A stretch of DNA of 64,000 nucleotides from an uncultured Candidatus Saccharibacteria bacterium. GTDB lineage: Bacteria > Patescibacteriota > Andersenbacteria > UBA10190. Where the stretch lies: assembly GCA_964359735.1 (NCBI GenBank), contig CAYHTZ010000003.1, positions 21,993 through 85,992 on the forward strand, read 5' to 3'. The notes under the pieces are model-generated. The model saw only the letters and a program-made list of their open reading frames with translations, was not told the origin of the DNA and made no database searches. Every line of letters begins with the position of its first letter. Positions within the stretch are counted from its first letter, which is position 1. A program made the translations under genes and the position numbers. This document shows positions 48,686 through 50,103 of this stretch, one piece after another.

Positions 48686-49540
48686 TTGTGGTTTGATACG
48701 GGTATGCCAGAAGGTCAAGAGGTGAGTCACTTTCGCAAGGTAAGCGCTCGCGTCGATCAGTACCCAGCAGGGTCAGTGGGTGCTCAGATTGATGGGAATC
48801 TCGTGCAAATCAGCGCTGCGTTGGCTACCGCAAAGGCTGATACTGATCCACGCGCTCGAAAACGAGAGTTGGCTCTTACTAGACTACAGACGTTTTACGG
48901 TGATTTGCGTTTAGAGCTGGACGCGGAAGATAAACTTGCCACTCCCGATTCCGCTTTGACGGTCGCAGCGGGAATACTTGCAAAAGCAATTGAACGAGAA
49001 GAGGTATTGCCAGCCGAGGCGCTCTTGAAAACTGCCCAGTTAGCTAACGGATTCGGAGATCTGCGAGACTTTGTTGCGAAGACTCCGCGCATGCGGCCGG
49101 TCGGCTGGGAAGCGTCTCAGCGCGCCGAGGTGGGGGTAAAACCAGTAGAATACCCACCAGGCTCGGTAGGAGAACTCTTGCAGCGGGCACTCGACAGTGT
49201 TACGCATGGGCTTGCTGAAGAAGGAAACCCCACAGGGGAGCTGATAAGCGAAAGAGCGCTAAGACTCAGGCGATTAGATACGTTCTACCGTGCTCTGGGA
49301 AATTTACTAGAGACCCAGAAACTGACTCTGGTTGATCACCCTACAGTGGTGAACACGATCGGTGCAATGGCGAGAGCGGTGGATAGAGGGGAGTTATCGA
49401 TAACCGACGCTTTGGTTAGAATTCCTCCCCTAGTTATGCATTACTCGCGAATAGGACAGCGAGGTGGAGGACACCCGCTATTCAGAACGGTCGGGCACGA
49501 GGAAGAAATTGATCCACCGAACCCACCTGACAAGCAGTGA
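48686..49540 (+). CDS. Hypothetical protein with a two-fold internal repeat
   Basis: Repeat units 'YPAGSVGAQIDGNLVQI...RARKRELALTRLQTFYGDLRLELD' and 'YPPGSVGELLQRALDSV...SERALRLRRLDTFYRALGNLLE'. No known domain. Confidence 0.45.
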   Translation: MWFDTGMPEGQEVSHFRKVSARVDQYPAGSVGAQIDGNLVQISAALATAKADTDPRARKRELALTRLQTFYGDLRLELDAEDKLATPDSALTVAAGILAKAIEREEVLPAEALLKTAQLANGFGDLRDFVAKTPRMRPVGWEASQRAEVGVKPVEYPPGSVGELLQRALDSVTHGLAEEGNPTGELISERALRLRRLDTFYRALGNLLETQKLTLVDHPTVVNTIGAMARAVDRGELSITDALVRIPPLVMHYSRIGQRGGGHPLFRTVGHEEEIDPPNPPDKQ

Positions 49541-49606: not shown

Positions 49607-49704
49607 TTCCCGGGGTCGTCTAACCACCGCCTCAAGCGGGGCTCCGCCAAAGGCGGGAGTGGCTCCCGCAGCAGCGGAGTTCCGCCAGCTGGCGGGAACA
49701 GGAC
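49607..49704 (+). repeat. tRNA 5'-half-like repeat unit A (starts TTCCCGGGGTCGTCTAA; conserved CCGCC-AAA-GGCGG hairpin; internal expansion)
   Basis: Shares its first 16 nt with the tRNA-Gln at 50030 and about 80% identity with unit B (49959-50028). Ends ...GAACAGGAC, 7 nt before the GIY-YIG ATG. Confidence 0.5.
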
Positions 49705-49710
49705 TTGCCT

Positions 49711-49974
49711 ATGTCTTACTTCACTTACGTTCTCCAGAGTCAAAAAACAGGTCGGTATTACGTAGGTTCAGCTACAAACATCCCAGCGCGACTTAAAAGA
49801 CATAACTCCGGGTATGTACGATCAACAAAAGCGGGTCTCCCTTACATTTTGGTTTATCAAGAGGAGCATCCAACTAAACAAGATGCGTATCGTCGAGAAA
49901 GAGAAATCAAAAGGTATAAAGGTGGAAATGCTTTCAAAAAGCTAGTACAATCGTCACACTCCGGGATCGTCTAA
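49711..49974 (+). CDS. GIY-YIG nuclease family protein (small, YhbQ/UPF0213-like)
   Basis: 'YFTYVLQSQKTGRYYVGSATNIPARLKRHNSG...PYILVYQEEHPTKQDAYRREREIKRYKG' gives GIY...YIG, R and E of the GIY-YIG fold. Stop codon TAA lies inside repeat unit B (atcgTCTAA). Confidence 0.75.
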   Translation: MSYFTYVLQSQKTGRYYVGSATNIPARLKRHNSGYVRSTKAGLPYILVYQEEHPTKQDAYRREREIKRYKGGNAFKKLVQSSHSGIV

Positions 49975-50028
49975 TGGCCACCGCAGTAGCGGGGTCCCGC
50001 CAAAGGCGGGGACAGGACTCTGGAGGTA
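49959..50028 (+). repeat. tRNA 5'-half-like repeat unit B (CTCCGGGATCGTCTAA...GTCCCGCC-AAA-GGCGGGGAC hairpin...ACAGGACTCTGGAGG)
   Basis: Diverged copy of unit A. Ends 1 nt before the intact tRNA-Gln, whose 5' 16 nt it repeats. Confidence 0.5.
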
Positions 50029-50029
50029 T

Positions 50030-50103
50030 TCCGGGGTCGTCTAAAGGCAGGACGGGAGGCTTTGGACCTCCTAATATAGGTTCGATTCCTATCCCCGGAA
50101 CCA
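50030..50103 (+). tRNA. tRNA-Gln (anticodon UUG), CCA encoded
   Basis: Hand-folded. Acceptor TCCGGGG/CCCCGGA 7 bp. D-arm GTCT-AAAGGCA-GGAC. Anticodon stem GGAGG/CCTCC with loop CTTTGGA (U33, anticodon TTG). T-arm ATAGG-TTCGATT-CCTAT. Discriminator A + CCA. Confidence 0.8.

Follow-up and report, generated by a model that had tools for sequence, protein, structure and literature searches.

A compact GIY-YIG nuclease gene with double-hairpin cassettes and partial tRNA copies at a tRNA-Gln gene of an uncultured Patescibacteriota bacterium

The Ssn family consists of single-domain GIY-YIG nucleases of ~94 amino acids (aa), encoded by genes with NTS/SRM hairpin repeats on either side (Chenal et al. 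2025, Nat Commun, PMC11893778). Binding of Ssn enzymes to the hairpin requires single-stranded DNA, cleavage takes place a few nucleotides (nt) upstream of it, the mutants Y6A, Y17A and E64A are inactive, and the authors liken the repeat–gene–repeat layout to an insertion sequence; tRNA is never mentioned in that paper (PMC11893778). T4 SegB is reportedly a free-standing GIY-YIG homing endonuclease encoded in a phage tRNA gene cluster (PMC2330249). Here, we analyze a 64,000-nt stretch of DNA (hereafter the window; assembly GCA_964359735.1, contig CAYHTZ010000003.1, positions 21,993 to 85,992 of the forward strand) from an uncultured Candidatus Saccharibacteria bacterium, in which a small GIY-YIG nuclease gene lies between two hairpin-bearing units, A and B, directly upstream of an intact tRNA-Gln(UUG) gene. 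Our comparison reveals that the locus is an instance of a widespread, compact module, in which a single-domain GIY-YIG gene is combined with at least one 35-nt double-hairpin cassette and with a duplicate of part of the adjoining tRNA. The arrangement is apparently undescribed: the literature searched contains no GIY-YIG–tRNA module of this kind, the nearest accounts being those of Ssn and T4 SegB, and the Ssn precedent explains part of it.

Several other systems share features with the module. REP/REPIN-RAYT systems reportedly contain palindromic doublets of ~35 nt that flank a single-copy gene thought to mobilize them, with non-autonomous copies scattered elsewhere, and RAYTs are HUH/Y1 transposases that cut and rejoin single-stranded DNA. 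The palindromic doublets of the module likewise flank a gene and are dispersed, but this gene encodes a hydrolytic GIY-YIG enzyme (Pfam GIY-YIG only) rather than an HUH (Y1) transposase, and we know of no REPINs in tRNA loops or beside tRNA duplications. The module resembles tRNA-targeting integrative elements in that it sits between a partial and a complete tRNA copy, leaves the tRNA functional and occurs in 5', 3' and tandem forms, and differs from them in its size of ~350 bp, its one 87-aa open reading frame (ORF) and the hairpins that interrupt the partial copy; between the repeats no tyrosine or serine recombinase gene was found, the GIY-YIG gene being the sole ORF there. Furthermore, most known tRNA-targeting elements duplicate the 3' part of the tRNA, whereas the module mostly duplicates the 5' part. 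Rickettsia palindromic elements, said to be 100–150 bp long and to reside in frame in protein genes and also in RNA genes, are alike as small palindromic repeats with both kinds of site, but the cassettes of the module measure 33–37 nt and are linked to a GIY-YIG gene, and to our knowledge the Rickettsia elements have no identified associated nuclease gene. T4 SegB is comparable as a GIY-YIG gene among tRNA genes that may promote its own inheritance by DNA cutting. Seg and I-TevI enzymes possess a C-terminal DNA-binding domain and cut double-stranded DNA, whereas the window protein is the catalytic domain alone and is not phage-borne.

The intact tRNA-Gln(UUG) gene, with an encoded CCA, spans 50030..50103 on the plus strand (ARAGORN; Rfam RF00005, 60.3 bits; all features below lie on this strand) and is separated from unit B by one base. 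The original prediction, made from the window sequence alone, held that both units begin with the first nucleotides of this tRNA, share a hairpin and terminate in ACAGGAC; sequence, repeats and coordinates bear this out, and every window feature it named was recovered in place. Unit A opens with a copy of tRNA-Gln nt 1–15 carrying one extra C (49608..49623; TCCCGGGGTCGTCTAA), of which 14 nt are identical to 50031–50044, so that tRNA nt 2–15 (CCGGGGTCGTCTAA) recur exactly at 49610–49623. It continues with cassette A1 (49624..49659; CCACCGCC-TCAA-GCGGGG / CTCCGCC-AAA-GGCGGGAG), which scores 50.4 bits (E 9e-7) with R1, a covariance model built from 22 cassettes of related loci, and is a member of alignment A4. 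The more diverged double hairpin of cassette A2 follows (49663..49698; CTCCCGC-AGCA-GCGGAG / TTCCGCC-AGCT-GGCGGGAA; R1 23.4 bits, E 0.03), and CAGGAC, tRNA-Gln nt 19–24 or the 3' strand of the D stem, closes the unit at 49699..49704. Cassette A2 (direct repeat family D1, spacing 38) is the 38-nt internal expansion that had been predicted in unit A and can now be identified as a second cassette. The AGGA of the D-stem remnant precedes the nuclease ATG by 7 nt and is a possible ribosome-binding site.

The nuclease gene (49711..49974) ends inside unit B, its TAA stop at 49972–49974 being the TCTAA of that unit, as predicted. The 5' part of unit B (49960..49977; TCCGGGATCGTCTAATGG), a copy of tRNA-Gln nt 1–18 with two mismatches, overlaps the last codons of the ORF; its counterpart of CCGGGGTCGTCTAA is CCGGGATCGTCTAA at 49961–49974, with one mismatch. 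Cassette B occupies 49978..50012 (CCACCGC-AGTA-GCGGGG / TCCCGCC-AAA-GGCGGGGA; R1 45.3 bits, E 6e-6), and the remainder of the unit (50013..50029) consists of CAGGAC (tRNA nt 19–24), TCTGGAGG and TAT. TCTGGAGG resembles tRNA-Gln nt 25–30, the 5' strand of the anticodon stem, with the GGAGG after CAGGAC matching that stem; the same TAT also precedes unit A. The motif CCGCCAAAGGCGGG occurs at 49644 in unit A and 49997 in unit B, and at no other site in the window. Because tRNA sequence resumes after the hairpins, the units represent tRNA-Gln from nt 1 to about nt 24–30 with an insertion at the D-loop position, giving the order [tRNA-Gln nt 1–15 + two cassettes + nt 19–24][nuclease gene][nt 1–18 + one cassette + nt 19–30][intact tRNA-Gln]. 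The predicted extent, the acceptor 5' strand plus the D stem, was therefore right as far as it went and too short, and the conserved hairpin is not part of a tRNA-derived unit but a separate 35-nt cassette in the D-loop position, which is also dispersed elsewhere. Readings of the units as tRNA genes or tRNA halves were rejected, since ARAGORN calls none there and the 3' half is absent, as was an intron or split-tRNA reading, given the truncation of the interrupted copies and the intact tRNA next to them. Within the window, the triple occurrence of the 14-mer is modestly unusual (three matches against 0.75 expected; at least three in 7 of 100 shuffles); we ascribe the units to a non-chance origin because of the comparative evidence across related loci, which, rather than these window statistics, is decisive. 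Directly upstream of unit A, a 284-aa ORF (48686–49540) has no Pfam domain and, among 5.8 billion proteins, no relative besides itself.

The nuclease comprises 87 aa from the ATG at 49711 or 89 aa from a TTG at 49705. Its match to PF01541 (51.9 bits against a cut-off of 22.6; E 9e-14) spans residues 3–69 and is followed by one helix, and the catalytic residues Y6, Y17, R27, H31 and E63 are invariant in an alignment of 24 relatives. The AlphaFold model of the protein (pLDDT 86.7) has the beta-beta-alpha-alpha-beta-alpha architecture of the superfamily and matches the folds of UPF0213 BH0048, Slx1, At-HIGLE, I-TevI and UvrC-N in Foldseek, and the nearest solved relatives by sequence are UPF0213 BH0048 (E 7e-7) and EF2693. 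The window protein is thus a bare GIY-YIG catalytic domain of the UPF0213/Slx1/Ssn kind, and a protein of 100% identity figures in the annotation of a Patescibacteria metagenome-assembled genome (MAG). The homing-endonuclease type suggested by the original prediction does not fit a catalytic domain that lacks a DNA-binding domain: the group I intron endonuclease model TIGR01453 reaches 19.3 bits against a cut-off of 56, over residues 5–33 only, and a classical homing endonuclease of the I-TevI/Seg type was rejected, as the protein has no C-terminal domain and as the searches gave no viral relatives and only three weak phage matches. The family counts 21,083 representatives at E<=1e-3; the 4,868 that reach E<=1e-10, at 50% identity, are annotated at present only as 'GIY-YIG nuclease family protein'. 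Many representatives (P0029–P0176; also, for example, P0011) bear 20–50 additional N-terminal residues, most likely gene-caller artefacts that read through the upstream cassette and tRNA fragment.

The module is like Ssn in outline, a likeness drawn from size, residue positions and layout, the best solved relative being a UPF0213 protein. We do not assign it to the Ssn family (cd10448), as the published SRM motif has no match here and tRNA plays no part in the account of Ssn. Both have a single-domain GIY-YIG protein of ~90 aa with catalytic Tyr6, Tyr17 and Glu63/64 at equal positions, and both have GC-rich hairpin repeats with a TCCCGC...GCGGGA-type core on the two sides of the gene and dispersed elsewhere. 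By comparison, the repeat of the module is a double hairpin that lies inside partial tRNA copies at loop positions, and its gene abuts a tRNA.

To place the window locus among its relatives, one genome per species was scanned, and the best 80 loci were taken from 232 relatives; for this purpose, the closer set A3 replaced the broad protein alignment A2, whose diversity was too great. The survey yielded 98 family ORFs from 88 loci, and the best 80 loci span Patescibacteria, Bacteroidota, Omnitrophota, Ignavibacteria, Bdellovibrionales and MAGs labelled Gammaproteobacteria. A co-oriented tRNA gene starts between -40 and +150 nt from the ORF stop in 68 of the 98 ORFs (tRNA-Ser, -Tyr, -Pro, -Gln, -Thr and -Lys), and for 48 of these 68, at least the first 9 nt of the local tRNA are copied within 350 nt upstream of the ORF. 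Controls gave 8.4 such copies when the tRNA seeds were exchanged between loci by permutation and 3.1 when they were shuffled, and a search of the region downstream of the tRNA for a copy of its 5' part gave 6 of 59. Most ORFs without a called downstream tRNA are followed by a hairpin-riddled tRNA copy, a contig end or a run of N. In the 5'-type loci, the duplication mostly starts 0–3 nt from tRNA nt +1, with five loci extending at least 7 nt upstream. These results support the main reading of the original prediction, in which a GIY-YIG gene is associated with insertion or duplication events in the 5' half of a tRNA gene, since the same family occurs with a local partial copy at Gln, Ser, Tyr, Pro, Thr and Lys genes.

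The closest relative of the window locus, L001 (68% identical protein), also precedes tRNA-Gln and shows the predicted variation at this site: it has one upstream unit with a single cassette and no unit B. Its ORF reads directly into the tRNA and stops at a TAA in the D loop, and ORFs at many other loci likewise borrow a stop codon within the tRNA. Cassettes A2 and B are absent from L001, and unit B corresponds exactly to the 70-nt block that L001 lacks. At L002 (63% identity), the gene precedes tRNA-Ser(GCU), and the upstream unit opens with the GGAGACGTG of that tRNA followed by a similar cassette; other relatives, such as L005 and L006, precede tRNA-Tyr and contain one or two hairpin-bearing copies of its 5' part. 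Protein clusters mix tRNA-Ser and tRNA-Tyr isoacceptors as well as phyla, a pattern that fits target switching and horizontal spread, while the Bacteroidota clade pairs with tRNA-Pro, and the window protein and L001 pair with tRNA-Gln.

In many Patescibacteria (L005, L013, L016, L033, L034, L045, L046 and L061), the module lies between tRNA-Thr and tRNA-Tyr in a tRNA cluster preceding rpmG (L33). As this gene neighbourhood is reportedly conserved across bacteria, modules at this place would stand out clearly as insertions into the ancestral gene order. A further small and divergent GIY-YIG gene (32–37% identity to the window protein) often occurs just 3' of the tRNA beside the module (L001 3472–3726, L013 1878–2120, L018 1885–2109; also L041, L058 and L074), and the tRNA is then flanked by two different GIY-YIG genes. 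At L001, an IS200-like Y1 transposase gene is located ~1.2 kb away.

An explanation without any functional link would be that a housekeeping GIY-YIG gene resides in a tRNA operon for expression, next to decaying tRNA duplications and generic REP-like hairpins. The chromosomal location and large size of the family (the 4,868 representatives at E<=1e-10) suit such passive relics, and no mobility event has been directly observed. The survey argues the other way: nuclease, hairpins and tRNA are repeatedly found together at different tRNAs and across phyla, cassettes stand 8–25 nt 5' of the start codon in at least 36 loci, and each partial copy matches its local tRNA almost perfectly even though protein identity is just 45–68%. 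In view of these findings and of the cassette distribution described below, we judge this explanation unlikely.

Other arrangements of the same parts also occur. In Bacteroidota, an intact tRNA-Pro is followed by the ORF and by a second tRNA-Pro of full length, in which GCCCCGCC-N4-GGCGGGGC takes the place of the D arm; tandem arrays of this kind are frequent. In Bacteroidales and other Bacteroidota (L019, L049, L052, L068 and L074), ARAGORN calls such copies with a 7-bp GC hairpin 'tRNA-Pro', and they alternate with GIY-YIG genes in tandem behind one normal tRNA-Pro. These D-arm-replaced copies are probably non-functional and a likely source of spurious tRNA counts in MAGs. The mirror form, [intact tRNA][ORF][3' tRNA fragment + cassettes], is found at L035, L041 and L086, and L024 (1840–2240) contains 2.5 tandem 159-nt units of a 3' tRNA-Ser(UGA) fragment with cassettes in the anticodon loop and the T loop. 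A CRISPR-like array was rejected for arrays of the L024 type, in which the 'spacers' are two alternating tRNA fragments. Mirror and tandem forms are as expected from recombination at a tRNA segment.

The cassette itself is a discrete unit of 35–36 nt in which one GC-rich hairpin, CCACCGC(C)-loop-(G)GCGGGG, precedes another, YNCCGCC-loop-GGCGGNR. Over the 22 copies used for R1, the two-hairpin fold is 93% paired, all slid controls being far lower, and the outer pairs of hairpin 2 show compensatory changes (CG 10 / UA 9, and so on). R1 finds only three matches in the 64-kb window, all flanking the nuclease gene and the next best having E = 1.5, which is hard to reconcile with passive relics; in related loci, its matches lie just upstream of the ORF or in pseudo-tRNA arrays. 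When each upstream unit is aligned to its own tRNA with long insertions allowed and cloverleaf positions taken from ARAGORN, precise 34–37-nt insertions appear after tRNA nt 14 (D loop) or nt 35/36 (inside the anticodon), after which tRNA sequence continues for 6–16 nt and the ORF starts 0–13 nt further on. Unpaired or edge positions of the cloverleaf receive 39 of 43 insertions (17 in the D loop and 12 in the anticodon) where 55% would be expected (binomial p = 5e-7, a value that is optimistic because the loci are related and not phylogenetically independent); the other four include alignment ambiguities. T-loop insertions are present in downstream tRNA copies. A second cassette type, a single hairpin YCCCGC-loop-GCGGGR followed by TAAA (L042 1239–1268; L055, L058, L072 and L081), is situated after tRNA nt 8–9, in the connector of the acceptor and D stems, or in the D loop, and its core is similar to TCCCGC...GCGGGA, the palindrome of Neisseria dRS3/NTS.

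A scan of metagenome contigs for the cassette pattern returned at least 120 stretches, with 80 loci among the matches listed, of which 66 are genuine cassettes (contig G+C below 0.56) and 14, in GC-rich contigs, look like chance matches. Twelve of the 80 listed loci adjoin a family GIY-YIG gene and 21 lie near a tRNA; 54 of the 66 genuine cassettes among these matches have neither a GIY-YIG gene nor a tRNA nearby, a point in favour of passive relics. Dispersed cassettes tend to have G before and AAA after them, and a few, such as those of L101 and L120, are located in the loop of a hairpin that was already present. Among the matches listed, 20 of the 66 dispersed cassettes (33–36 nt) lie inside stop-free frames of 150–962 aa, on either coding strand (loci L089–L168; for example, L094 3152–3184, L142 1449–1479, L138 3564–3597 and L157 2050–2082). 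They contribute 11–12 residues each, such as TAVGGTPLKAVE, and one host frame looks like LepA.

The hairpins could also act at the RNA level, with the units serving as tRNA-derived structured leaders or spacers in the tRNA-operon transcript for processing (RNase P/E/Z), mRNA stability or control of translation. The units share the orientation of the tRNA and the ORF and are probably transcribed with them, their folds are more stable than those of shuffled sequence (z -3.0 and -3.3), their hairpins are kept by compensatory changes, and the AGGA in the D-stem remnant stands at 7 nt from the ATG; in addition, because the stop codon lies inside the tRNA at L001 and many other loci, RNase P cleavage would affect the mRNA. 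The original prediction had likewise raised a structured tRNA-derived RNA as its alternative, which received no positive support, there being neither an Rfam family nor a tRNA call. At gathering and permissive thresholds alike, no Rfam family was found for the units, only the intact tRNA passing, and their best match, DUF3800-XI, reaches 17.3 and 12.9 bits against a cut-off of 37.8. The partial copies cannot form a tRNA-like substrate because they lack the 3' half, and the occurrence of the cassette in unrelated places, including in frame within coding frames and on either strand, is more in keeping with a repeat at the DNA level than with a dedicated RNA signal. Single-stranded DNA would be expected to show hairpin covariation just as much, and the Neisseria Ssn enzyme does not bind RNA (PMC11893778). 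Taken together, a role in RNA appears quite improbable.

The layout of a flank identical to the target, conserved hairpins and an ORF also agrees with a guide-type nuclease, in which the tRNA segment beside a hairpin scaffold would guide the enzyme, as DNA or RNA, to intact tRNA genes, in parallel with the omega RNA of IscB/TnpB; in this regard, Ssn cuts even when the hairpin stem is formed by two separate oligonucleotides (Chenal et al., PMC11893778). However, no guide-binding module is known in a domain of 87 aa, the cassette interrupts the tRNA segment, the length of this segment ranges from 7 to 36 nt, mirror forms place the cassettes 3' of the ORF, and the literature searched contains no report of an RNA-guided GIY-YIG enzyme. 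We regard guiding as very improbable.

The reading that we favour, and consider probable if only just, is that of a selfish nuclease-plus-hairpin element lodged in a tRNA gene by way of a partial tRNA duplication; the tRNA remains intact because the element carries or creates a second copy of the tRNA 5' part, an end result shared with the att-site duplication of integrative elements. The anatomy of the module is far more secure than its enzymology. By analogy with the Ssn nucleases, cassette hairpins in single-stranded DNA are the most likely binding sites of the enzyme, which would nick the adjacent DNA. We infer from this action a recombination route in which the breaks would drive host recombination between tRNA repeats, leading to integration, tandem amplification (as in unit B), deletion and cassette spread. 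A small circle or fragment composed of a tRNA segment split by a cassette and the ORF may recombine with a chromosomal tRNA gene and leave one tRNA intact: a 5' segment would give the window type, a 3' segment the mirror type and a full tRNA the Bacteroidota arrays. Unit B is best accounted for by another cycle of this kind, or by a tandem duplication at the locus, that left a cassette-bearing fragment without an ORF.

Several points weigh against the selfish-element reading. GIY-YIG nucleases hydrolyze DNA and cannot join strands, and host recombination must therefore be invoked. The family is near-absent from mobile replicons (one weak plasmid match, three weak phage matches and no viral contigs), and on these near-null searches a plasmid, phage or viral origin was rejected. 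Neither an empty site nor a presence–absence polymorphism between close strains was found in a search conducted through the upstream neighbour gene, an orphan; because no gain or loss between close strains was found, mobility is read from the distribution alone. A search of both strands for the SRM motif HGTCWYN(0-2)YYVSBRHN(0-5)WNVSBRGN(0-2)RNCYNB gave no match in the window region or in 265 kb of related loci, as the hairpins lack an oriented flank with GTC, and they are for this reason not classed as SRMs. In addition to the relatedness of the loci behind the loop statistics, the loop preference could partly reflect selection or a G|AAA-type sequence preference rather than a reading of structure. 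Finally, the proposed link between nuclease and cassettes in this clade is drawn from sequence comparison.

A bolder version, which we hold to be doubtful, is that nuclease and cassette form a minimal autonomous mobile system that recognizes folded single-stranded DNA and inserts cassettes into exposed loops. Its targets would be the D, anticodon and T loops of tRNAs, other hairpin loops and tolerated in-frame sites in protein genes, and it would spread its own gene by nuclease-triggered recombination at tRNA genes. If this were true, a GIY-YIG enzyme would drive structure-targeted DNA mobility, and among the self-contained mobile modules known in bacteria this one might be the smallest.

If the selfish-element reading is correct, it would provide direct genomic evidence of mobility for the Ssn/hairpin story, in which the biochemistry is known but there is no clear biology outside Neisseria, and it would account for many odd 'tRNA' or pseudo-tRNA calls and N-terminally extended gene calls in MAGs. 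The enzymes and their cassettes would constitute natural enzyme–site pairs with defined flanks for single-stranded-DNA tools, and the strict placement in tRNA loops makes testable the long-standing question of whether small palindromic repeats pick their targets by DNA secondary structure. Furthermore, a very large family, with ~4,900 representatives at 50% identity and E<=1e-10, would gain a genomic lifestyle, in which tiny nuclease-plus-hairpin modules inhabit the tRNA genes of Patescibacteria, Bacteroidota, Omnitrophota, Ignavibacteria and others.

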